A stretch of 64,000 nt of DNA from Octopus vulgaris (taxonomy: Eukaryota): positions 9,052,001 through 9,116,000 of the forward strand of contig OX597833.1 in NCBI GenBank assembly GCA_951406725.2, in the 5' to 3' direction. A program made the position numbers and the translations under genes. Of the stretch, positions 2,776 through 52,969 are shown piece after piece; the stretch's first letter is position 1; each line of letters starts with the position of its first letter. A model generated the notes under the pieces. That model was not told the origin of the DNA and made no database searches. It saw only the letters and a program-made list of their open reading frames with translations.

Positions 2776-4499
2776 CTGAGTTAAGAATAAGAAAATCATA
2801 ATAATCAAAATTAAAATTACTTGAAACAGGAAAAAAAGCAGCTCGATGAGGCAATGACAAAGGAACTCCACAATCAACTTCAAAAGGATGCAGCAATGCA
2901 TCAGGGAAAGAAAATTATTCAATTCTATTAACCTCAGATAAAAAATTTACAAAACAGTTTTCAAATTTCAATGATACATTTGAGAAACAGGTAGAAAACT
3001 GTACATTTCCAGGTAGAGAAAAGAGTAGCAAGGAAAAGGGATTACTTTCAAAGGTAAATCTAAAGTTCCTAAATAACAGATGCAAAGAATTAAAACTGTA
3101 AATAAACTTACAATTGGATGGTAATAAATAATTCTTAAAGAGGTTTATCTCATGAATTGGAGAAAAAAATGCAAATAATCGATATTAACAGTTGGTATCA
3201 ATCACCAATAACTTAATCTCTCCCCATTGGCATTATGATTTTTCTCTCAGATTCTACCTTACAATCTGCAATATCTCCCACCTCTGATCCACAAACCTGA
3301 GAGCCATTTTAATTCTTTTGACTTCTTCCTTTGCTATTGTCTGGTTTCTTTCCTACTCCTTGATGCCCTCTTTCTTCCAGTCTTTCCAGATCCATCTCTT
3401 GGCCTTTATGACTCTAACCAAAAAACTATTCCACCACTATGTCACCCACTTTTGGGTTGGAACCTTACAAACCTGGTCCGTTACTCTCAGCAGATCACCT
3501 CGTAAGTCCTTCCAGTTGTTCTCTACATCTCTCTCGTGTCGTTTACCTCAAGTAATACATCTCTGAACCTACAACAACTTGATGGTTCTTTCAATTTCTA
3601 TATCCTCCTCCGTCCGTTTGTCTTTTGTCTCCGGGTCCATCTGAAGTCACTAATCTCTGACATCTGTTGGGTGTACATTCTTCATCAACGATAAACTATT
3701 CACAATCATCTGTCCATCCCTTTCCCTGGTGAGTACCAAGTCCTACCTGCACTCCTACATACAAATTAGACGAGGGCTATTATCAAGAGGGAAGAACATC
3801 AATTACTTAAGATGCAAAAGGCCATGGAAAGATCCAGGCTAGGATTATATATATTTATATACACACACAAATATTAGCATGTTCTAGTCTACATTTCCAC
3901 CATCCCCTCTTCTCCACATCTTCTCCCATACTAAGTTCCCAACATCCCAATTCTGTCTTTACAATTCCAACCACACCTTATATACTTTAAATTCTTTACA
4001 TTCCAACTCCTTACAAGCCTTATTCCTCAGAGAAATAATAAACTGAGGGCCAGAATGTCAGGTACAAGAGCAAATTCTTCATTGCAGAAACCAAGAAAAA
4101 AAAAAAAAGCTAGTGGTAATTGTCAGTCACACCCAAAGAAAAGAGGAGGTAATTTTTAAAAATGGAGTTGGTTTACACAAAGGAAAGCCTGGTCTTTGTA
4201 GGCAAGGGAGACAACTATGGATGTGTTTTAGTCTATTAGACCTCATCAGCAAGCTTATTCAATCAGTATAATTTGCAAAATTAAAATCCTCTGCAAGCTG
4301 CCTTGAAACCCTCTATCTTCTTTGTGTGTGACTTTGTAGTGGTCTGGGTGTCCTTCCCTACTTGGCAACTCTTGCTCTCACCTCTTCACATTCTTAGAGA
4401 AAAACTATTTACACCTTACTACCTTCTCGATTATTGCACCTGTATAGGCTAGGGGTATTGATAGGACTGAATCCAAATATCCAGTCTTTAGCGACTCGT

Positions 4500-30842: not shown

Positions 30843-31036
30843 GTAGCGTATCAAAAGATATTACAACTGTCCTATGTCGACAAGTTTCTGACTGCCATCC
30901 AAGTGGAGTTTCGGAATAAATATAAAGATGACCTTCAACGGGGAAATATATCTCGAAATTTTGATTTTCGAGAAGATTTCAATCTTCTACTCAAGGAAAC
31001 GGTGGATGAAAGCATTTTGCAAGCCCAGAAGCCGAG
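30843..31036 (+). CDS. SRPRA: SRPRA coding exon 3
   Basis: cttacccag | VAYQKILQLSYVDKFL...FDFREDFNLLLKE...QAQKP(R) | gtaggg; phase 0/2. Confidence 0.95.
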
Positions 31037-31660
31037 GTAGGGTAAAATATTTTGGTTATTGTTATGGTGAAATCTGGAGAATTAAAGGTTGTGAGTTCAA
31101 ATCACTCATCATATTTATGTTTGTAAACCTTTGTGTGAAAAGATCATATTTAGACTCAGGAAAGAAGGGAATTTCAAAAGAAATGTTTAGTAATCAGTGT
31201 GAGAGATGAGAGAGTAGATAGGGTCCAAAGTAGACTGGAGACAACATGTGTAATGAAGAGAAGTGGTGCAGAGGATGGGAAGGACAGGAATTTGGTGTAA
31301 TTTACTCATAGAATGACTGGTCAGAAGTGGTGGTCATGACATGGATGCTTAGAGATGTAAATTGGACAAGAGCATTGTGGATGTATTTAAGTCAAGGGAT
31401 TTTAATTAAAACAACATTCTTAGTAGGAAATTTGGGCGAGAGGAGATAACCTCAAAATTTTAATTGAAATTAATATGAAGTATAGTAAGGACTGAGCCTG
31501 GTGTTTAGCAGTGTAGTGATAACTCTGGACATATTCCTGTTTTATTAGAACTCTTCAGGGCAACAGTCTAACTCTGTGTGGAGAAGCAAAAGTAGCATTT
31601 GTATGACTAAATACAGAGTAGAATTATAAATAGAGTAACTTGTTTAAGGTTTTTGTTTAT

Positions 31661-32032
31661 AGACACAGGCATGGCTGTATAGTGAAGTAGTTTGTTTCTC
31701 GACCACATAGTTTCTGGTTCAGTTCCAATGCAGGACACCTTGGGCAAGAATCTTCTACTCAAGCCCCAGGCTGACAAAGGTCCTGTGAGTGGATTCGATT
31801 GATGGAAACTGAAAAAAAGCTTATCAGGTGTGAAATGAATGTTACTGTCATCCAGGGGTGTCCTTTGTTTCCAGTCTTCAGTTAAATCATGTATGGCCTT
31901 CACGAAATGTTACCTTACTTAGAGACAGTTGAGGGTTAGTGACAGGAAGAGCATCCATTTGTAGAAAATCTGTCTCAACAAATTCTGTCTGGCCCATGCA
32001 AGTATGGAGAACTGGATGTTGAACCATGATAA
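31661..32032 (+). mobile_element. SINE family A with RTE-type tail
   Basis: ggcatggctgtatagtgaag...ggttcagttcc...caccttgggcaag...ggaaactgaaa, then gcatcca...cccatgcaagtatgga...gatgttgaa. Confidence 0.72.
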
Positions 32033-33102
32033 TACTACACACACACACACCTTAGAGCAACGAAATGGAAATTGTCATGTCAGAATGGTACAAGAGACTT
32101 AGTTTCACCAACATTGACAGTCTTAGGAATGCAAAGCAAAGGAGAAAAGTGGCTGCAAACAACCGCCTACACTGACCTGCAAACCTCATATTTGCAACAC
32201 CTGCAGGTTTCTTTGCTAGTTGTTGGCAGGACCCAAAACCCTTGAGACTGACAAAGAAAATGTAGGTTGTTGGATCTTCATCATATATATATAAGCAATA
32301 GTTATAACGATAGAGAATATGGAGACTGGTACATTCTCAAAACTTATTTGCTTTTATTCTATTATGTCATTGAGTATATTTTTATGGCTACAATGACTCA
32401 CGCACAGATTAGGGGCAGTTGCTTAATCAGGCATAATTTTCTGTGCAGCTTTGTTCGTTGTCTTTCAGCTAGCTTGGTTCGGAGGAATTTACAGCATGAA
32501 TGACAACTCCAAGTAATCATAGACGTTACATACTGTTGTGGTTAGCTGTAACCTGGAACATAACTGAGAGCCACTACAGTATCCACCTGGACTCTAAACT
32601 CACACTATGTATATATGAGCGTGTGTGTGAATATATATATATATATATTACTCATGCAAGCATGGAAAAGTAGATGTAAAAATGATGCACACACACACAC
32701 ACATGTTGGTTACTCTGTGTGTCTGTGCTTCTGTGCTTCTCTGCAAATTGCTGAGTCACAAGTCATGATTCTATTTCCTCTGTCACTAAATTGTCTTTTG
32801 GCCTTGCGCCTTTGAAGACTTATGGAATAAGAGATAACTTATATGAAGAACAGGCAACGCTTGACACTACAGAGGGTGTCTTGCTGTAAGACTGAAGCCT
32901 CAGTAATAGGTTTGTGTAATCCATATTAGCATGACAAAACGGACATAAAATTGAACCAAGAAATTGTCAAATAAATTGTGAGGGTGTAAGCAGTAATTAG
33001 TGAATAGATTGCCTATTAATACGACCATCAATTTATTATCACCAAGAGAATTAGGGTATTAGAGGAAGACCAGCTGACTGATGCAAAGCCTACCAAATTA
33101 CT

Positions 33103-33175
33103 GTACCAAATGATGAAGTCTTTTTGTAGTCTCTAATGTCAATGAGGGTTTCAACTTTTCTGACTCTGATGGTAC
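33103..33175 (+). ncRNA. Box C/D snoRNA, paralog a (copy 1)
   Basis: Terminal stem GTACCA/TGGTAC, box C ATGATGA (33110-33116), internal CTAA/ATGAGG (D'/C'-like), guide AACTTTTCTGAC (33153-33164), box D CTGA (33166-33169). Confidence 0.85.
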
Positions 33176-34190
33176 CTTAAAGACATAGATTGGTTGCCAA
33201 ACCACAATAGTGCAGGGGTTAAGCATATGGGTTATTGGCCTGGCAATTACAGGTTCAAACTAAGCCGCTTCCATTTTGTCATCTAATCTAGATTAAATCA
33301 AATTTTTTTACTCCCAGCTTCACAACATAACTCTTTTACTTGTTTCAGTCATTTGACTGCGGCCATGCTGGAGCACTGCCATTAGTAAAACTGTTTTTCA
33401 AATGTCTACATCTGTTTTTGTATGTTTGGTTCTTGCTGGTCTGATTAAGGAAAATGGACATTTCTTATTCCACGGTGAAATATGAGTCAATAAGAAGGAC
33501 TCTGTCAGACACAACACCGTCTTCCCTTTTCTGTAGCCAAAAAGGGTTAGGAAAAGTGGGGGGGGGGGTCAAGAGAGAAAAGAAATCAGGCGTGATGTAA
33601 GGGAGGTAACTGGTGCTTCTTCGCTACTTGACCAGTGAACCTAATCGGCTGCAAAGGCTATCATCGGTTGTCAATGGACCTGAGTGGAGTTGTAAGATAA
33701 TCGAATCAGAATAGAACCGGTTTATTCGTGGTTCACCAGGCTCAGCTATTTGCTTTACATATTTGTGAGGCTGTTGATATTTGGGGGCCAAGATTTGGAG
33801 GTAAATTGCCTGTTTGCTGTGGGGAGAAGATTTTTGAGATAATTTGCGTCTCCGTTTGGACGTCTAATTTGGAGGTTTTTTCCTCAATAATTTCTACTTT
33901 TAATTTTTTCCCTCCTGTAAAAATATTTTACTTAATAAAAATGGTATTTATGTAAGCTCGACCGACCTACAACCCCTTCTCCCAAGATAGCCGTTTTGGT
34001 TTCCGAATTGCAGTGATGGAGTGGATGTTGTTTGTGTGCAACTTTTTATGATATAAAATGTGTCCCCTTTGCTTTTGTTTTGTAAATTGTGCTTTGTTAT
34101 GGAGACATTGGGTTTCTCAGTGTAACAAGTTCAATGTTTTCTAGCTTTGAATTGTCGGGCTTTAATTCGCTAATCTCCTGCTGATGTGTT

Positions 34191-34263
34191 GTATCAAATG
34201 ATGAAGTCTTCTTCTAGTCTCTAATACCAATGAGGGTTTCAACTTTTCTGACTCTGATGCTAC
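34191..34263 (+). ncRNA. Box C/D snoRNA, paralog b (copy 1)
   Basis: Box C ATGATGA 34198-34204, same guide, box D 34254-34257. Inner stem is imperfect (GTATCA/TGCTAC) but an outer stem TGATGTGTT/AACACATCA is present. Confidence 0.8.
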
Positions 34264-34868
34264 CTTAAACACATCACTTAACCCATGTCCCCTTCCATAC
34301 GTTGATCATAGTTTTTCTTGATTAAATATGAAATGTATTTTTCCTCATTATTTCTATAATTATTGTGGTGGTCATATTGGTAAGGACGTGGTGGTCATGG
34401 CTCTGCTGTGGAGAAGATTTTGAGATAATTTTGGTCTCCGTATCATATCTGTATTAATGATGTGTACTTTTTCAAGTACACATATGTCTATCAAGGAGTA
34501 AAGTGTTACTGAGATCTGTAGTGCAATGTTACACTTGTATGCTGTTTTTAAGAACTGAATGACTGGTCATTTGGTCACAAACAAGTCCACTTTGTGAAAT
34601 TAATTTTTTTCTTGTGTACTTTTGTTGATAGTTGTGCAAATTGAAACATTTGCATAGACTAATGGCAATTATTTTACAATTGGATATACTTTGCTTCTTA
34701 GAGTTGTCAGCAATGATAATGGAAATGGCATTAGTTTTAGCCAGGTTAGCATTGATATAAAATTGGATGATAAAGTTTGTGCTTAGTATATCCCAATGGG
34801 GTTTAGATGCTAAAGGCTGTGTTCCATAAATCTCTGCGATGTTTCGTATATGCCTGCGGTGGTGTGTT

Positions 34869-34938
34869 GTGCCAAATGATGAAAGCATTCCAGTCTCTAA
34901 CATCAATGAGGGAGAAACTTTTCTGACTCTGATGGTAC
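34869..34938 (+). ncRNA. Box C/D snoRNA, paralog c (copy 1)
   Basis: Stem GTGCCA/TGGTAC (one G-U), box C 34876-34882, diverged interior but identical guide, box D 34929-34932; outer stem GGTGTGTT/AACACATC. Confidence 0.85.
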
Positions 34939-35737
34939 CTCAAACACATCCCAGCAAACAATGGTTTAGTTTGGTAACTGGCAAGAGCAGCAGTGCAGGC
35001 ATTGAATGGTAGAGTGTGAGGAATCCAATTAATTAGCAAAGTGAATTACTCTAGGAAGTCCTGTTGTGGTGTTCATTTGTGTACATGACTGAGAATAGTT
35101 TATAGTAACACGATATTGATTCAGTGGGTGTGTCAAATTAGCTAATGTTGAATTTATATATATATATGTATGTATGTATGTATGTGTGTGTGTGTGTGTG
35201 TGTGTATGCTGATGGAAACAGGAAAGTAGAACTCAGAACACAAATATATTTTTGGTATTGTTTATAATGGTAAACAATTCCAAATGTTTTTTCTCAAACC
35301 TTTTATAATGTGATACAAGTCTTTGGTGTAGCAATTGCATGCGGCTGCAGAAGGCTTTTGAACTATCTGTTATGTCGATGTAAGAATAAGTTATTCTATA
35401 AAGCCTGAAACATATGTACCGCAACATCCTTTGTTTCCTGTTTTTCATTTGATACATATATATATAATAAACTACAGTAATGTTGAAACAGGCGATACGG
35501 GAAAGTGCAACATGGATGAAAAAACATTTGTGGATTAAACGATGGGCCAATTCGATCAAGCGACTTGTGATTTGTCTGTTTGGTGTATTCCAGGCCCTAA
35601 CCAATCCTGGAAAATTGGAGGTGGGGTGGGCATGTGATTTTTGAATGCACTGATATGTTGTCAGTGGATATACTCCTCCTTTGCAGCAGTCGGTGCTGCG
35701 TCTAACATGACCCATCGCCTGCAGTTAGGACACCTCC

Positions 35738-36763
35738 CTCAGGTTTGTTGTCCAACATCATTCATAAAGTAAATTTGCAGGAACTGTGGTTGTTCATTTG
35801 TGCGTAACGGAGAACCAATGAGGTGATCTTGCCCTTGAACTTTGAACGTCGGTGTAAATCCATGGTCAACTATCTCCTTAGATGAACCAAACTATGTCAT
35901 TTGGAATGCAGAGTTGTATTGTCTGATATTCTTCAGAAAATCCTTTGACTGGATGGAAGTACCTTCCAGAAGATCCATAAGTGGTTGAGAAAGAGTTGGT
36001 AGTGCTGACAATGTTACCTGCCCACCTGAGCAGCACATCCCGTTAGTTTCCTTTGGAAATTTTAAAGCTTTGCAGAAATGACAATTTGAGTTTATACACA
36101 ACAATTTGGACAAGATTATCTTTTTTATAAGAATGGGATGGATTATATCTTTAAGCTGCTCCAGGAGTTGTGAAGAACGAATTTGTACGTAGTGTGTTTC
36201 TGAGAGCTGTTCTGTTGGACCCTTGTCTAATCATTAAAACAAAGTTGTTTTAATGATTCTGGATTAGGTGCTGCAGCATCCCTTTGCTGATCTTGGGGAA
36301 GTCTCATCTCACTTCCCTCTTGAGACCCCCTTTGATGTGCTGCAGCATCCCTTTGCTGATCTTGGGGAAGTCTCATCTCGCTTCTCTCTTGAGACCCCCT
36401 TTGATGTGCTGCAGCATCCCTTTGCTGATCTTGGGAAAGTCTCATCTCGCTTCTCTCTTGAGACCCCCTTTGATGTGCTGCAGCATCCCTTTGTTGATCT
36501 TGGGAAAGTCTCATCTCGCTTCTCTCTTGAGACCCCCTTTGATGTGCTGCAGCATCCCTTTGCTGATCTTGGGAAAGTCTCATCTCGCTTCTCTCTTGAG
36601 ACCCCCTTTGATGTGCTGCAGCATCCCTTTGCTGATCTTGGGAAAGTTTTACCGTCTTTCTCTCTTGCCTTTGGTCTTCTAAAATCCTCCTTGCTTTGTA
36701 CTTGTTTCTGGAGAGATTACGTCTTTTCTTTGGTGGGGTAGTTCTATCAATATTGTAAACCAA
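35738..36763 (-). mobile_element. Helitron RepHel 5' fragment (pseudogenised)
   Basis: CHFCKALKFPKETNGMCCSGGQVTL...FLKNIRQYNSAFQMT*FGS...TPTFKVQGQDHLIGS...PQFLQIYFM are hallmark N-terminal Helitron motifs, with a premature TAG at 35892. Preceded by R/Q/E-rich 23-aa repeats. Confidence 0.88.
36268..36647 (-). repeat. 69-bp tandem repeat (about 5.5 copies) in the Helitron N-terminal ORF
   Basis: Units start at 36268, 36337, 36406, 36475, 36544 and 36613; encodes RLSQDQQRDAAAHQRGSQERSEM on the minus strand. Confidence 0.95.
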
Positions 36764-37691
36764 AAATTGTGAACACAGAAGAAATTATACAGAAATCTCT
36801 TTTCGTGTAAGCAGTTGTATGTAATATGTCTTTATTTTTGTATGCAGAATAAATGAACCAAATAGAAGCACATGTATGGATTGCTAATTTAACGGTAAAT
36901 TTGCAGTTGCTGTGATAATTATTAACTGAGAATTGAATGGTAAATGTGTATTTTTCTATCCCTTGGGCCTGCTACCTCATCGTCTTTTGTCAAGGGTTCC
37001 CCCCTTCAGCTGTCTGTTATGTCAGTCAACACACATTGACACACCATTCCTGTAAAGACAGAAAGTTGCCGATGTGTAATGTTGCTCACATTAGGATGTA
37101 ATTAGAATTAAAAGTGAAACAATCCTATGTCACATTACAATATAGATGTTATTCTCTCATTTTTGACTTGTTTTACTGAATCAGTGCCACTTTTGTATTG
37201 TTTTAATCCAAATGGAAAGAAAAATGACATGTTGACACTGATGGGGTCTGATACTATTACCATGTAAAATCTGATTTGATTTGGTTGAGCCGTTGGAGAA
37301 TGCATTGCGAACAAATGGGAAGACAAAGAGAATTTTAGATATACAACAAGTACAGGTTCCAATGTTATGTGGCTAATGTACAGTTTTTGGTTTCGCTCTT
37401 ATATAGATTAATAATGAATATACAAGCAAATAAGGAAAATTTAAAGGTATGTATGCATAGATATGGAATGGCATATTCCCTATTTCCTACAATAAAATTG
37501 GTTGCACCCCACCAGCCACATGTCACCTTAGTGGCTACATGTATCATGGAATGTATTCACTGATTGTTTTCCAAAAGCGGTAGAGTTTATTCTGTTTGCT
37601 TTTGCGCCACTAGGGTCCATTTCTAAAAAGTATTTCACACAGAAAACAAACTGTTGGCATGAATTATAGTCTTCTAACCTCCCAAATTACT

Positions 37692-37764
37692 GTACCAAAT
37701 GATGAAGTCTTTTTGTAGTCTCTAATGTCAATGAGGGTTTCAACTTTTCTGACTCTGATGGTAC
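37692..37764 (+). ncRNA. Box C/D snoRNA, paralog a (copy 2)
   Basis: Identical to 33103..33175. Confidence 0.85.
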
Positions 37765-38757
37765 CTTAAAGACATAGATTGGTTGCCAAACCACAATAGT
37801 GCAGGGGTTAAACGTATGGGTTATTGGCCTGGCAATTACAGGTTCAAACTAAGCCGATTCCATTTTGTCATCTAATCTAGATAAAATCAAATTTTTTTAC
37901 TCCCAGCTTCACAACATTACTCTTTTACTTGTTTCAGTCATTTGACTGCGGCCATGCTGGAGCACTGCCATTAGTAAAACTGTTTTTCAAATGTCTACAT
38001 CTATTTTTGTATCTTTGGTTCTTGCTGGTCTGATTAAGGAAAATGGACATTTCTTATTCCACGGTGAAATATGAGTCAATAAGAAGGACACTGTCAGACA
38101 CAACACCCGCCTTCCCTATTCTGTAGCCAAAAAGGGTTAGGAAAAGGGGGGGGTCAAGAGAGAAAAGAAATCAGGCGTGATGTAAGGGAGGTAACTGGTG
38201 CTTCTTCGCTACTTGACCAGTGAACCTAATCGGCTGCAAAGGCTATCATCGGTTGTCAATGGACCTGGGTGGAGTTGTAAGATAATCGAATCAGAATAGA
38301 ACCGGTTTATTCGTGGTTCACCAGGCTCAGCTATTTGCTTTACATATTTGGGGGCCAAGATTTGGAGGTAAATTGCCTGTTTGCTGTGGGGAGAAGAATT
38401 TTGAGATAATTTGCGTCTCCGTTTGGACGTCTAATTTGGGGGTTTTTTCCTCAATAATTTCTACTTTTAATTTTTTCCCTCCTGTAAAAATATTTTCCTT
38501 AATAAAAATGGTATTTATGTAAGCTCGACCGACCTACAACCCCTTCTCCCAAGATAGCCGTTTTGGTTTCCGAATTGCAGTGATGGAGTGGATGTTGTTT
38601 GTGTGCAACTTTTTATGATATAAAATGTGTCCCCTTTGCTTTTGTTTTGTAAATTGTGCTTTGTTATGGAGACATTGGGTTTCTCAGTGTAACAAGTTCA
38701 ATGTTTTCTAGCTTTGAATTGTGAGTCTTTAATTCGCTAATCTCCTGCTGATGTGTT

Positions 38758-38830
38758 GTATCAAATGATGAAGTCTTCTTCTAGTCTCTAATACCAATGA
38801 GGGTTTCAACTTTTCTGACTCTGATGCTAC
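38758..38830 (+). ncRNA. Box C/D snoRNA, paralog b (copy 2)
   Basis: Identical to 34191..34263. Confidence 0.8.
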
Positions 38831-39438
38831 CTTAAACACATCACTTAACCCATCTCCCCTTCCATATCCCGTTGATCATAGTTTTTCTTGATTAAATATG
38901 AAATGTATTTTTCCTCATTATTTCTATAATTATTGTGGTGGTCATATTGGTAAGGACGTGGTGGTCATGGCTCTGCTGTGGAGAAGATTTTGAGATAATT
39001 TTGGTCTCCGTATCATATCTGTATTAATGATGTGTACTTTTTCAAGTACACATATGTCTATCAAGGAGTAAAGTGTTACTGAGATCTGTAGTGCAATGTT
39101 ACACTTGTATGCTGTTTTTAAGAACTGAATGACTGGTCATTTGGTCACAAACAAGTCCACTTTGTGAAATTAATTTTTTTCTTGTGTACTTTTGTTGATA
39201 GTTGTGCAAATTGAAACATTTGCATAGACTAATGGCAATTATTTTACAATTGGATATACTTTGCTTCTTAGAGTTGTCAGCAATGATAATGGAAATGGCA
39301 TTAGTTTTAGCCAGGTTAGCATTGATATAAAATTGGAAGATAAAGTTTGTGCTTAGTATATCCCAATGGGGTTTAGATGCTAAAGGCTGTGTTCCATAAA
39401 TCTCTGCGATGTTTCGTATATGCCTGCGGTGGTGTGTT

Positions 39439-39508
39439 GTGCCAAATGATGAAAGCATTCCAGTCTCTAACATCAATGAGGGAGAAACTTTTCTGACTCT
39501 GATGGTAC
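39439..39508 (+). ncRNA. Box C/D snoRNA, paralog c (copy 2)
   Basis: Identical to 34869..34938; lies about 335 nt upstream of the exon 4 acceptor. Confidence 0.85.
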
Positions 39509-39842
39509 CTCAAACACATCCCAGCAAACAATGGTTTAGCTTGGTAACTGGCAAGAGCAGCAGTGCAGGCATTGAATGGTAGAGTGTGAGGAATCCAATT
39601 AATTAGCAAAGTGAATTACTCTAGGAAGTCCTGTTGTGGTGTTCATTTGTGTACATGACTGAGAATAGTTTATAGTAACACGATATTGATTCAGTGGATG
39701 AGTCAAATTAGCTAATGTTGAATTTATATATATTGCTTTTTTTACGTGAAATCCATGGGTTGAATATTTCTTTTATTTTATGAATTAGTTTCAGTTTTTT
39801 TATTTATTTATCTCTGTTAATTGTTTCTGGTTATTTTTGCAG

Positions 39843-39949
39843 AAAGATGAAGAGTTATGAAGAATCCCAGAAGTCGAAAAAAACTGTGGCGTCGATGATA
39901 GAAAATAGAAAAGAAGACAAGAAGAAAAAAGAAGAAAAGAATAACAAAG
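39843..39949 (+). CDS. SRPRA: SRPRA coding exon 4
   Basis: atttttgcag | (R)KMKSYEESQKSKKTVASMIENRKEDKKKKEEKNNK | gtagga; resembles the conserved MKKFEDSEKAKKPVRSMIE segment; phase 2/1. Confidence 0.93.
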
Positions 39950-41040: not shown

Positions 41041-44000
41041 CATCATCATCATCATCATCATTTAGCGTCCGTTTTCCATGCTAGCATGGGTTGGACGGTT
41101 CTGCTGGGGTCTGTGAAGCCAGAAGGCTTCATCAGGCCCAGTCAAATCTGGCAGTGTTTCTACGGCTGGATGCCCTTCCTAACGCCAACCACTCCGTGAG
41201 TGTAGTGGGTGCTTTTTACGTGCCACCCGCACTGGTGCCAGCCAGAGCTGGCAAACGGCCACGAACGGATGGTGTTTTTTATGTGCCACCGGCACGAGGG
41301 CCAGGCGAGGCTGGCAACGAACACGAAACGGGGCGGTGCTGGCAACGGTCGCGAAACGGAAGGTTCTCTTACATGCCACCGGCACTGGTAACACATCTGC
41401 AATTTCCATTGATCGATTTCCATTGATCGATTTCGATTCTGATCCTCACTTGCCTCAATGGGTCTTCACAAGCAGAGTTTCGACATGCCACCGGCACTGG
41501 TAGCACATCCGCAATTTCCATTGATCGATTTCGATTCTGATCCTCACTTGCCTCAACACGTCTTCACAAGTAGAGTTTTGTGTCCCAAGAAGGGAAGGTA
41601 TGCATACGTAGGCTGGCTCCATCCCATGTAGAAGGCCACGGGTTGTGGACTCACTTGTCCTGCCGGGTCTTCTCGCGCACAGCACACTTCCAGAGGTCTC
41701 GGTCTCTAGTCATTTCCTCGGTGAGACCTAAAGTTCGAAGGTCGTGCTTCACCACCTCGTCCCAGGTTTTCCTGGGTCTGCCTCTTCCACAGGTTCCCTC
41801 AACCGCTAGGGTGTGGCACTTTTTCACACAACTATCTTCATCCATTCTCGCCACATGACCATACCAGCGCAAACGTCTCTCTTGCACACCACAACTGATG
41901 CTTCTTAGGTCCAGCTTTTCTCTCAAGGTACTTACACTCTGCCGAGTGTGAGTACTGGCATTACACATCCATCGGAGCATACTGGCTTCATTTCTAGCGA
42001 GCTTACGCATATCCTCAGCAGTCACGGCCCATGTTTCACTGCCATGTAGCATGGCTGTTCGTACACACGCATCATACAGTCTGCCTTTCACTCTGTGCGA
42101 GAGGCCTTTTGTCACCAGCAGAGGTAAGAGCTCTCTGAACTTTGCCCAAGCTATTCTTACTCTAGCAGTTACACTTTCAGCACACCCGCCCCCGCTGCTG
42201 ACTTGGTCACCTAGGTAACGGAAACTATCAACTATTTCTAGTTTTTCTCCCTGGAAAGTGACAGAAGTTGGTCTCAGAGCATTTTCAGTGTTTATTGTTC
42301 CTGAGCATCTGCCACATACAAAAACCATCTTCCTAGTTAGCCTTCCTTTGACATTGCTGCATCTCTTATGTGTCCATAGCTTACACTTGGTGCATCTTAT
42401 AGAGTTTCTACCTACACCTTTTCTACAGATCGAGCAGGGCCATCTACCTGAAGGTGTTTGTGATTTGTCTACCTTCCTACTGATTACGACTTTGGTTTTA
42501 GCTAGATTGACTCTGAGGCCCTTCGATTCTAATCCTTGTTTCCACACCTGAAACTTCTCCTCCAGTTCTGATAGCGACTCAGCAATTAGAGCAAGGTCAT
42601 CAGCATAGAGGAGCTCCCAAGGGCATCCTGTCTTGAATTCCTCCGTTATTGCCTGGAGGACTATGATAAATAGGAGGGGGCTGAGTACTGAGCCTTGGTG
42701 GACCCCTACCTCTACCCGGAATTCTTCACTGTACTCATTTCCAACCCTCACCCTACTAGCGGCGTCCCTATACATGGCCCGCACAGCTCTCACTAACCAT
42801 TCATCTATCCCTAGTTTTCTCATTGCCCACCAGATAAGGGATCGGGGGACCCTGTCGAAGGCTTTCTCCATGTCAACAAAAGCCAGGTACAGGGGCTTAT
42901 CTTTGGCTAGGTATTTCTCCTGCAGCTGCCTTACCAGGAATATAGCATCAGTAGTACTTTTCCCTGGCACAAACCCAAACTGCATCTCATCTAAACTAAC
43001 TCTCTCTCTAATTAGTTGGGCTATGACCCTCTCCGTAACCTTCATCACCTGGTCCAACAGCTTGATACCTCTGTAGTTGTTTGTATCTAGGGCATCACCT
43101 TTACCTTTGTAGCAGTTGACTATTATACTGCTACACCAGTCATTGGGTATGACCCCTTTGTGTATCACCTGATTAACTATATGGGTGACTAGGCTATAGC
43201 CGACACTACCAGACATTTTGAGCATCTCTGCAGTGATTCCTGATGGGCCTGGGGCTTTCCCTGTCTTCATGCTTCTAATTGCCTTAGCTACCACAGAACT
43301 ATCAACTCGGATAGCTGGTCCCTCTGTTGGGTCAACATTCGGCAGACTCTCTTTATCCCATTCATTTTCTTCATTCAGCAACCTTTCATAGTGGCATCTC
43401 CAAACCTCTCTCTTTGCATCCTCATTTAGCGCAAGTGAACCATCTTCCATGCGAACACACTTCTCTCCTACCACATCACGATTCTCTCTCACACACTGTC
43501 TTGCAACACGAAACACCTCCAGTCTTTGGTCCTCACGGCGCAGAACATTGGCAAATTTTTTCTTATCTGCTTCCCCTCTGGCTAAATAAACCTGTCTCCT
43601 AGCTTCTCTTTTGGCAGTCTGATACAATTCCCTGCTACCCCCATTTTTCCAGACCTTCCAAGCCTGTCTCTTTTCTCTAATAGCCCTGTCTACAATATTG
43701 TTCCACCACCACGTTATTCTAGGTCGAGAGGGGACTTTGCACCAGCCACAGATCTGGTCAGTGGCTCTCAGCAGGTTGTCCCTTAGAAACGTCCAGCTGT
43801 CTTCTACCCCCTGTGATGCTCTATCCCCTTCTACTTCGTCAGAGGCTTCAAGTAATATGTCCCTAAATCTCTGTCCATTTGCAGGATCTTTAAGCTTCCA
43901 GATCCTTCTTCTCCATATTTGTCGTCTTCTGGTTGTCCTCCTAGTCCTGATCCTAAAGTCACTAACTACCAGTCTATGTTGTGGGGTACATTCTTCACCT

Positions 44001-44155
44001 GGGAAGGTTTTGGCATTTATAAGCAGCCATCTCTCCCTTTGCCTTGTAAGGATGTAGTCAATTTGGCTGGTATGTTGGCCCGATTGGTAAGTGACTAGGT
44101 GGCTGGTAGGTTTCCTGAAGTTAGTGTTGCAAATCATAAGATTATTTGCATCGCA
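41041..44155 (-). mobile_element. Young 5'-truncated RTE-clade LINE in SRPRA intron 4
   Basis: Uninterrupted ORF from the endonuclease C-terminus (TYQSGQHTSQIDYILT, QHRLVVSDF) through RT (GKAPGPSG, YRGIKLL, QFGFVPG, AFVDMEKAFDRV, GVHQGSVLSPLLF, YADD) to the RTE C-terminus (RRLRWYGHV, GRGRPRKTW). About 600-bp 3'UTR and (GAT)7 tail at 41041-41061. No convincing target-site duplication. Confidence 0.97.
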
Positions 44156-44221
44156 AATATTTGTTTCATTTGATATTTTAGTTTGTTGTCTTTGTTTTAG
44201 TCCGTCCGACTGAAGTAGCAT
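41651..44221 (-). CDS. RTE ORF (partial APE + RT + PHD finger), 856 aa as called; first ~22 aa are host-derived
   Basis: From the ORF track. Element homology begins at CDANNLMICNTNF; the ATG (44219-44221) is in the antisense of SRPRA exon 5. Confidence 0.7.
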   Translation of the reverse strand: MLLQSDGLKQRQQTKISNETNICDANNLMICNTNFRKPTSHLVTYQSGQHTSQIDYILTRQRERWLLINAKTFPGEECTPQHRLVVSDFRIRTRRTTRRRQIWRRRIWKLKDPANGQRFRDILLEASDEVEGDRASQGVEDSWTFLRDNLLRATDQICGWCKVPSRPRITWWWNNIVDRAIREKRQAWKVWKNGGSRELYQTAKREARRQVYLARGEADKKKFANVLRREDQRLEVFRVARQCVRENRDVVGEKCVRMEDGSLALNEDAKREVWRCHYERLLNEENEWDKESLPNVDPTEGPAIRVDSSVVAKAIRSMKTGKAPGPSGITAEMLKMSGSVGYSLVTHIVNQVIHKGVIPNDWCSSIIVNCYKGKGDALDTNNYRGIKLLDQVMKVTERVIAQLIRERVSLDEMQFGFVPGKSTTDAIFLVRQLQEKYLAKDKPLYLAFVDMEKAFDRVPRSLIWWAMRKLGIDEWLVRAVRAMYRDAASRVRVGNEYSEEFRVEVGVHQGSVLSPLLFIIVLQAITEEFKTGCPWELLYADDLALIAESLSELEEKFQVWKQGLESKGLRVNLAKTKVVISRKVDKSQTPSGRWPCSICRKGVGRNSIRCTKCKLWTHKRCSNVKGRLTRKMVFVCGRCSGTINTENALRPTSVTFQGEKLEIVDSFRYLGDQVSSGGGCAESVTARVRIAWAKFRELLPLLVTKGLSHRVKGRLYDACVRTAMLHGSETWAVTAEDMRKLARNEASMLRWMCNASTHTRQSVSTLREKLDLRSISCGVQERRLRWYGHVARMDEDSCVKKCHTLAVEGTCGRGRPRKTWDEVVKHDLRTLGLTEEMTRDRDLWKCAVREKTRQDK

Positions 44222-51587: not shown

Positions 51588-51860
51588 TCATTACACACCT
51601 CCACTTTGGCTGTTCTATCGCTACCTTCCCATCCCGTCATTACACACCTCCACTATGGCTGTTCTATCGCTACCTTCCCATCCAGTCATTACACACCTCC
51701 ACTATGGCTGTTCTATCGCTACCTTCCCATCCCGTCATTACACACCTCCACTATGGCTGTTCTATTGCTACCTTCCCATCCCGTCATTACACACCTCCAC
51801 TATGGCTGTTCTATTGCTACCTTCCCATCCCGTCATCACACACCTCCACTTTGGCTGTTC
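51588..51860. repeat. 49-bp minisatellite (about 5.5 copies) in SRPRA intron 11
   Basis: Unit cattacacacctccactatggctgttctatcgctaccttcccatcccgt; ORF-track starts are offset by 49 (51606, 51655). Confidence 0.95.
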
Positions 51861-52969
51861 TGTTAGTGCTTCCCTGATTGTGGGTGGTTGAGGGGGTCAT
51901 GGGTTCAATCTTGGTTTCAGCTAGTCTATTGTATCCTTGATCAAAGTACTTCATCTCTCCTCGTGTAGCCTTCTGTCCCCCTACCTGCCCTATCTTTGAT
52001 AGTCTGTTGAGTTCTGGATGGCAGACCTGTGTCTTTACTATGGAGGCACCTTAAAGCAATTATTGAAAGTACGGCACATACTACCAGGTCAAAGTCTCTT
52101 TGGGTTACTGCTGCCCCCAAGTCAACACAAGAAATATAAAAGGTATTTCAATCATGACCACCACTGCTCTGACTGCATCAGTTGTTGTGTGGGTTGCTCT
52201 AACTGTTACTCAGGTAACAACTGTAACCTCTATCCTATTGCATTATTATTCATGTAACCTGTTCCAAAAACTTAAACTGTCAACAACTTTGGTCTTGCAT
52301 CTCAGTCCAGTTTCCAATAGACTTCTCTCTCTTCTATAAATGGTTGCTAACAACAAAACCAGTTCTAACAAGGACATGACTGATTGGTTGAGTTTGGAAT
52401 CTTAAAAAGAAATTTTATTATGACCGATGAGGTCAAACATAAAATATTATGATATTCCAAAATTAATGTGAATCATTATTTACTGAGGATTTCATTAAAA
52501 AATAAACATTATTATAAAGATCAGTTAAAGCTAAAATTTATGATAGAAATTACAGAATTGTTGTCTTTGGGTTCACTCAAAGAACTGCATTTATTTTGGG
52601 TGAATATCATCTGATTTGGGTTTTTGTTATACAATTCTTAATATTGGTTTTAGAATCTTTCTTTCTGATGTATTATTTATCCTAATTTGTGGTCTGCTTT
52701 GAATTCTTACAACCATCATCTGGTCAAACTTTTGTCTGGTTAAAGTCATTTAATTTCTGGTGTAAAAATTGATGATGATGCTGATGATAGTGGCAATTGC
52801 AGTTTCATAATTTTAGGACCAGAAATTTGTGTGGTTTTGGGTTTGGCAAATGAGATTGACTTCAGTACTTGATAGGGCCTTCATTTATTGACCCTGAAAG
52901 GTAGAGTGGACCATAGCAGAATTTGAATTCAGTTTGTAAAGAGATGGAAGAGATACCAGGACCAGCCAA

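Follow-up and report, generated by a model that had tools for sequence, protein, structure and literature searches.

Six predicted box C/D snoRNA genes in an octopus SRPRA intron share a guide for a probably undescribed 28S rRNA site in the ribosomal E-site loop

What is encoded by a short motif that recurs six times on one strand of a 64,000-nt stretch of Octopus vulgaris DNA (the window), and which rRNA nucleotide would it address? The motif is a 17-mer consisting of a 12-nt guide, a U, and box D, and it occurs in six exact + strand copies with 0 mismatches (starts at 33153, 34241, 34916, 37742, 38808, and 39486), against an expected count of 0.03 (mean of 100 shuffles). Each copy forms the 3' part of a 70- to 73-nt unit with box C (RUGAUGA) close to its 5' terminus and box D (CUGA) close to its 3' terminus; both boxes are perfect in 6/6 copies. 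The units and the parts of the first one are as follows.

33103..33175, + strand: box C/D snoRNA, paralogue A copy 1 (from sequence, alignment, pairing, and fold)
33103-33108 and 33170-33175, + strand: terminal stem arms of paralogue A copy 1
33110-33116, + strand: box C of paralogue A copy 1
33133-33136, + strand: D' (CUAA) of paralogue A copy 1
33142-33148, + strand: C'-like element of paralogue A copy 1
33153..33164, + strand: 12-nt antisense element to 28S rRNA, paralogue A copy 1
33166-33169, + strand: box D of paralogue A copy 1
34191..34263, + strand: paralogue B copy 1, guide at 34241-34252, one terminal-stem mismatch
34869..34938, + strand: paralogue C copy 1, guide at 34916-34927, the most diverged paralogue, with a stem A-U changed to G-U
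37692..37764, + strand: paralogue A copy 2, guide at 37742-37753, same sequence as copy 1
38758..38830, + strand: paralogue B copy 2, guide at 38808-38819, same sequence as copy 1
39439..39508, + strand: paralogue C copy 2, guide at 39486-39497, same sequence as copy 1

The ends of the units form a 6-bp terminal stem, which together with a 3-nt bulge is spaced as in the C/D kink-turn. When the stem and the two pairs adjoining box D (named by hand) are scored, 38/40 cells are paired; slid controls reach 25 to 60%. The stem changes among the paralogues are one G-U (C) and one mismatch (B), and no compensatory stem change is found among the three. The D' (CUAA) and C' (AUGAGGG) elements, which are 5 nt apart, are the same in all copies yet degenerate. 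Free folding recovers the stem in A and C, and the folding stability of the whole molecule is no better than that of shuffles (z of 0.1 to 0.3), as expected for C/D RNAs. An internal CUGA at 33160-33163 was rejected as a box D, with 7 pairs remaining and no stem. By their sequence anatomy, the six genes are box C/D guide snoRNAs, an ordinary RNA class, with a predicted function.

All six lie on the sense strand of a single intron of the gene for the signal recognition particle (SRP) receptor alpha subunit, SRPRA.

30843..31036, + strand: upstream SRPRA coding exon (Pfam SRP-alpha_N)
31037..39842, + strand: host intron of SRPRA, 8806 nt, GT..AG; a spliced contig from run X19 omits these 8806 nt
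39843..39949, + strand: downstream SRPRA coding exon (run X19 contig; Pfam)

The flanking exons match pieces of the Pfam families SRP-alpha_N and SRP54, which identifies the SRP receptor alpha subunit, and over 64 amino acids the upstream exon matches a cluster labelled Octopus sinensis SRPRA at 100% identity (next best, 77%). Elsewhere in the locus, an 856-codon open frame with an RVT_1 domain (Pfam) lies antisense inside the SRPRA gene at 41651-44221 (− strand) and looks like a recent copy of a non-LTR retrotransposon; decayed relatives are found at 13 to 15 kb and 22 to 27 kb. A 98-bp tandem repeat occupies 51588-51864, directly after an SRPRA coding exon.

The six copies represent three diverged paralogues (A, B, and C) multiplied by one 2.1-kb duplication, so that they constitute three independent witnesses, not six.

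33089..35163, + strand: duplication unit 1 (A, B, C), 97.6% identical to unit 2 by self-BLAST
37678..39733, + strand: duplication unit 2 (A, B, C); the upstream flanks of both units are present in runs X17 and X18

Pairwise, the paralogue bodies match at 56/60, 47/57, and 48/57 positions, and their 100-nt flanks can be aligned only with heavy gapping; as read from these sequences, the paralogue divergence is older than the duplication. Among the columns outside boxes and stem, 14/38 vary, with 0/12 varying within the guide (P about 0.001). The invariance of the guide amid varying columns indicates that selection acts on it, with three sequences as the evidence. Between the two units there are 23 substitutions and 4 indel events, none of which falls within the 213 nt of snoRNA sequence; this absence of substitutions since the duplication is not significant (P of 0.09).

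The 97.6% identity of the units and the sameness of the snoRNA bodies would also be seen if the second triplet were an assembly artefact, with two haplotypes placed in tandem and three genes present rather than six, and none of the listed contigs covers both units. However, the upstream flanks of the two units are unrelated, and runs X17 and X18 show each of them continuing into copy A. Depth gives a hint and no more: it is 18 to 20 for the contig that lies within the unit, compared with 3 to 11 for other long contigs when the high-copy repeat is left aside. We therefore consider an artefact quite unlikely and the duplication probably real; the question bears on copy number only. Contig boundaries in X17 and X18 (an end at 34257, a start at 38797) coincide exactly with a 32-mer common to A and B that contains C', guide, and box D. 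These ends point to the same guide in runs that carry other organism labels, and an identity of ~99% to the window marks X17 and X18 as close kin.

The spacer between the units (35164-37677) contains a high-copy repeat and a 69-bp tandem array at 36268-36667. An open reading frame within it (35892-36230, − strand) has no Pfam match and gives a weak Helitron-like lead (score of 0.89, family assigned on 25% of members); the duplication may have involved a rolling-circle element.

To which RNA would the conserved guide pair? LSU stretches were fetched by a motif 3' of the predicted target, giving at least 39 loci, 38 of them rRNA-like and one (L009) a chance match. The guide is Watson-Crick complementary at 12/12 positions to the 12 bases before the anchor in 22/38 eukaryotic LSU stretches among the matches listed, and the remaining 16/38 differ from the guide complement at one or two positions. 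It also pairs 12/12 with the stretch of human 28S rRNA given in an excerpt of PMC12477938. In these 28S sequences from other species, the antisense element ends 1 nt before box D and is Watson-Crick at D+5, where the U at 33161, the fifth base upstream of box D, stands opposite the predicted target A. A complete 18S/5.8S/28S unit (L090) contains one 12-bp guide site with a duplex energy of −15.2 kcal/mol, and 7 to 12 of 1000 shuffled spacers reach the guide score on this unit when G-U is counted half. Within the window, the perfect 12-mer stands at 6/620 CTGA sites, which are these six copies. A sequence-only reading of this DNA had described the guide followed by U and CUGA in all six copies, its 12/12 pairing with a conserved 28S stretch, and the placement of D+5 on this same A; the exact copy count, the match to human and to 22 of the 38 listed LSU stretches (all from other species' 28S), and the pairing register bear out each of these points. 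The LSU stretches (L001 to L039, with the 38 rRNA-like ones) and L090 lie inside GTDB prokaryotic genome records, which points to contamination of those assemblies with eukaryotic rRNA.

The one or two differences in 16 of the 38 listed stretches, and the fact that about 1 in 100 shuffled spacers scores equally once G-U pairs are admitted, could mean that the real target is another RNA or that octopus 28S has diverged, leaving the match as a relic or a product of chance. We regard this as very unlikely given the perfect match in the human excerpt and the complete unit, the exact D+5 register, and the location of the site in domain V, where it is flanked by known guided methyls.

The D' side does not appear to provide a second target. 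That its sequence differs among the paralogues and has no recognisable target had already been remarked in the sequence-only reading and agrees with the search of the L090 rRNA unit, in which no duplex exceeds chance: the best score 7.5 to 8.5 and are equalled by 540 to 641 of 1000 shuffles. In 8 LSU stretches of fungal type, 11 nt of paralogue B (two of them G-U) pair immediately upstream of the main target; this candidate second guide was rejected because A and C do not pair there and an animal-type locus offers only 6 to 8 weak pairs. The D' side probably serves as a spacer with no target of its own.

Counted without gaps from the conserved 3' anchor, D+5 corresponds to human A4376, yeast A2799, and E. 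coli A2430, the last by way of E. coli landmark numbers. The yeast and human anchors (2815 and 4392) come from Table S4 of PMC11014333, in rows 1-36 and 112-209. In an excerpt of PMC8430933, yeast G2794 corresponds to bacterial 2422, which makes the eukaryotic loop shorter by 3 nt immediately 5' of the site. The A2430 equivalence thus rests on the count from the 3' side, and of the three numbers the bacterial one is the least secure. With that proviso, the numbering proposed earlier (A2799 and A2430) is reproduced by the 3'-anchor count. The accompanying description of the site as next to the peptidyl-transferase centre proved loose: the target A belongs to the H88-H74 loop, which lines the tRNA E-site, and A2451 is 21 nt away; the target as a whole spans the single-stranded H88-H74 loop and the 5' strand of H74. 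According to the same excerpt of PMC8430933, tRNA A76 is held between yeast G2793 and G2794, and yeast A2802 is a contact of E-site inhibitors. An excerpt of PMC13372681 places U2431-A2435 at the bacterial E-site and describes a ribose methyl in the pocket of that site, Cm2395, that blocks an antibiotic. With these contacts nearby, the site is better assigned to the E-site loop than to the peptidyl-transferase centre.

We favor, with a probability of about 0.7, the explanation that the SRPRA-intron snoRNAs act as standard methylation guides and direct 2'-O-methylation of the 28S A4376 equivalent, which remains a prediction. Under established C/D rules, the SRPRA intron would be debranched or cut and trimmed to RNAs of ~70 nt, on which the core proteins would assemble at C/D and C'/D'. 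The guide would then form 12 bp with octopus pre-28S rRNA, and fibrillarin would 2'-O-methylate the ribose of the nucleotide opposite D+5 (A4376/A2799 equivalent). The effect would likely be a local stabilization of the H88-H74 loop, like that of the neighboring Gm2791, Gm2793, and Gm2815 marks. Those rules are the source of the steps from release and assembly to pairing in octopus and methylation; what is observed comprises the boxes, the stem, the kink-turn spacing, the sense-strand position in a spliced intron, the invariance of the guide, and the pairing to 28S of other eukaryotes. Points against a standard guide are the differences in 16 of the 38 listed LSU stretches, the lack of compensatory stem change, the degenerate C', the CUAA at D', and the presence of six copies in one intron with none closer than 334 nt to the 3' splice site.

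The anatomy and conservation would fit equally well if the guide were conserved for pairing itself, with the snoRNP acting as a folding chaperone on the H88-H74 loop of pre-28S and leaving little or no methyl. Yeast snR190 provides a precedent for a chaperone role. The target covers a single-stranded loop together with the 5' strand of H74; in the rows of Table S4 of PMC11014333 cited above, snR190 is given as "predicted" and no methyl is listed here for the six mapped species. However, the duplex starts at position 2 from box D and is Watson-Crick across D+5, which is the geometry of methylation, and 12 bp is an ordinary guide length. A second conserved antisense element is also lacking. Pairing without methylation is accordingly considered unlikely.

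If the standard guide reading holds, has the site or the family been described before? Rows 1-36 and 112-209 of Table S4 of PMC11014333 give measured sites for fly, human, yeast, Arabidopsis, Xenopus, and Dictyostelium; the human entries run from 4368 and 4370 to 4392, with nothing at 4376. As the sequence-only reading had it, the site falls between those of SNORD60/snR48 and SNORD1/snR38 (6 nt and 16 nt away, respectively), and these rows show no methyl there in human or yeast, to which fly, Arabidopsis, Xenopus, and Dictyostelium can be added. Maps from Euglena, trypanosomatids, nematodes, zebrafish, archaea, and planarians lie outside this six-species comparison.

The comparison with Rfam that had been proposed along with that reading returned no existing family that covers the target at threshold: none reaches its gathering score, the best having 21.8 bits against 42. 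When single copies were searched at E≤10, 18 and 22 matches were obtained, mostly to unrelated C/D families and at most 22 bits; the SNORD60/snR48 and SNORD1/snR38 families are not among them, and the guide is absent from the best 10 of 18 and the best 10 of 22 alignments. Tetrahymena TtnuCD13 (RF02289) was set aside as a coincidence, scoring 18 bits against 75 and having 26S 928-942 and a tRNA as assigned targets. The zebrafish SnoBIRD candidate CD_77270 has 11/12 guide letters, but they stand after the D' box and not before a box.

In the literature searched, mostly open access, neither the site names nor the guide and target motifs led to a snoRNA or methyl assigned here, and searches for mollusc or octopus snoRNAs found neither work on rRNA methylation nor a cephalopod methylation map. 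The main text of a fungal snoRNAome study has no "2799," supplementary file 2 of a Tetrahymena study is without the guide motif, and a search of the Leishmania literature for the site gave 0 matches under a guessed numbering, which is uninformative. On the six-species comparison and these searches, the target site is probably undescribed, and the cluster is, from its sequence, a predicted guide of known class with a likely new target.

Homologues were also sought more widely. When metagenomes were scanned for box C combined with guide and box D, 48 stretches were obtained, most of them in long open frames by eye; none shows the C'/D' layout, and they look like chance. A covariance model built from the three paralogues scores the six copies at 95 to 108 bits and the metagenome stretches at 21.2 bits or less, and it finds no further copy above 15 bits within the window. 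Because these collections are poor in animal DNA, the absence of homologues is no evidence for lineage specificity. In L053 and L087, which look like animal DNA, a 49-nt stretch from box C to box D with a 5-bp flanking stem is found at 401-449 (− strand); its guide variant would pair via one G-U, it scores 16.5 bits, and it is short and without C'/D', probably a chance occurrence.

How six copies would be released from a single intron is a further question. Intronic snoRNAs usually occur one per intron. Here, the distances to the 3' splice site of the 8806-nt intron range from 334 nt (paralogue C copy 2) to 6667 nt, and an acceptor-like site within 400 nt downstream is found for 1/6 copies. 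End-trimming of the intron alone would yield an RNA of ~6.4 kb (33103-39508) with a snoRNP at each end, and the gene layout would permit such a sno-lncRNA. The run data consist of assembled contigs, with no run on record as RNA, and the low-depth intronic contigs that cover B and C (runs X1 and X19) may represent pre-mRNA or DNA. Together with sno-lncRNAs, which an excerpt of PMC10557570 describes as two snoRNAs with the unspliced sequence between them, these features would suit copies that are not singly released, with either the ~6.4-kb snoRNA-ended RNA as the product or a single copy matured while most stay silent. However, the same excerpt also describes polycistronic snoRNA units, including intronic clusters, and splicing-independent release, and A, B, and C all retain guide and boxes despite the divergence of their flanks, which fits selection on each. 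A long RNA or largely silent copies are therefore judged improbable; either would be compatible with methylation, with which they are not mutually exclusive. Sno-lncRNAs and polycistronic intronic clusters resemble the octopus cluster in having more than one snoRNA per intron; the octopus cluster differs in consisting of six same-family C/D copies that arose via local duplication.

One 934-letter contig from run X19 fits 34228-35057 over 829 letters, with 105 outside the listed match. A weak alternative 5' splice site just downstream of copy C is conceivable, since GT comes after the unit-2 equivalent (39627) and the next exon measures 107 nt.

A more far-reaching combination of these elements can be put forward, rather speculatively and as an unlikely whole: an octopus E-site methyl described in no organism so far, served by a six-gene cluster that is still expanding and is processed by splicing-independent cleavage or as a 6.4-kb RNA, might tune tRNA release or sensitivity to E-site ligands. 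The methyl would then lie between the bases reported to hold tRNA A76 and the contact of E-site inhibitors.

Compared with known guides, the octopus genes share with the box C/D class the boxes C, D, C', and D', the kink-turn stem, a length of ~70 nt, a 12-nt antisense element before box D, the sense-strand intronic position, and a translation-related host gene. They differ in having a target that is absent from the portion of the six-species table cited and no Rfam match at gathering score, and as guides they are predicted from sequence. The SNORD60/snR48 guides are hosted by a gene other than SRPRA. These and the Drosophila guides for Gm2791 and Gm2793 (human Gm4370) address the same E-site loop 6 to 8 nt upstream, with G as the target of SNORD60/snR48 where an A is predicted for octopus. 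The next guided methyl, 16 nt downstream, is that of SNORD1/snR38 (Gm2815, human Gm4392), a different target. Similar in kind are guides listed only for Drosophila (Am2724, Cm3298, Um3415, Am3420, and Cm3422) and only for Xenopus, which place a methyl in conserved domain V rRNA that the other listed species lack and are often multicopy; those sites are measured, whereas the octopus site is predicted, at another position and in a mollusc.

Private sites of this kind are common in the sources: rows 1-36 and 112-209 of Table S4 of PMC11014333 include five fly-only and many Arabidopsis-only sites, and an excerpt of PMC6984369 reports frog-only and human-only sites. Given such sites in every species mapped there, one more would be expected in an unmapped animal. 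The prediction concerns one nucleotide and can be checked by RiboMeth-seq or primer extension. If measured, it would add a guided methyl in domain V at a point where the listed sites of six mapped species have none, in an animal group for which no rRNA methylation map was found in the literature. It would bear on whether lineage-specific methyls reflect neutral turnover or ribosome tuning, and the layout of six genes in one intron offers a testable example of the release of clustered C/D snoRNAs in animal cells.
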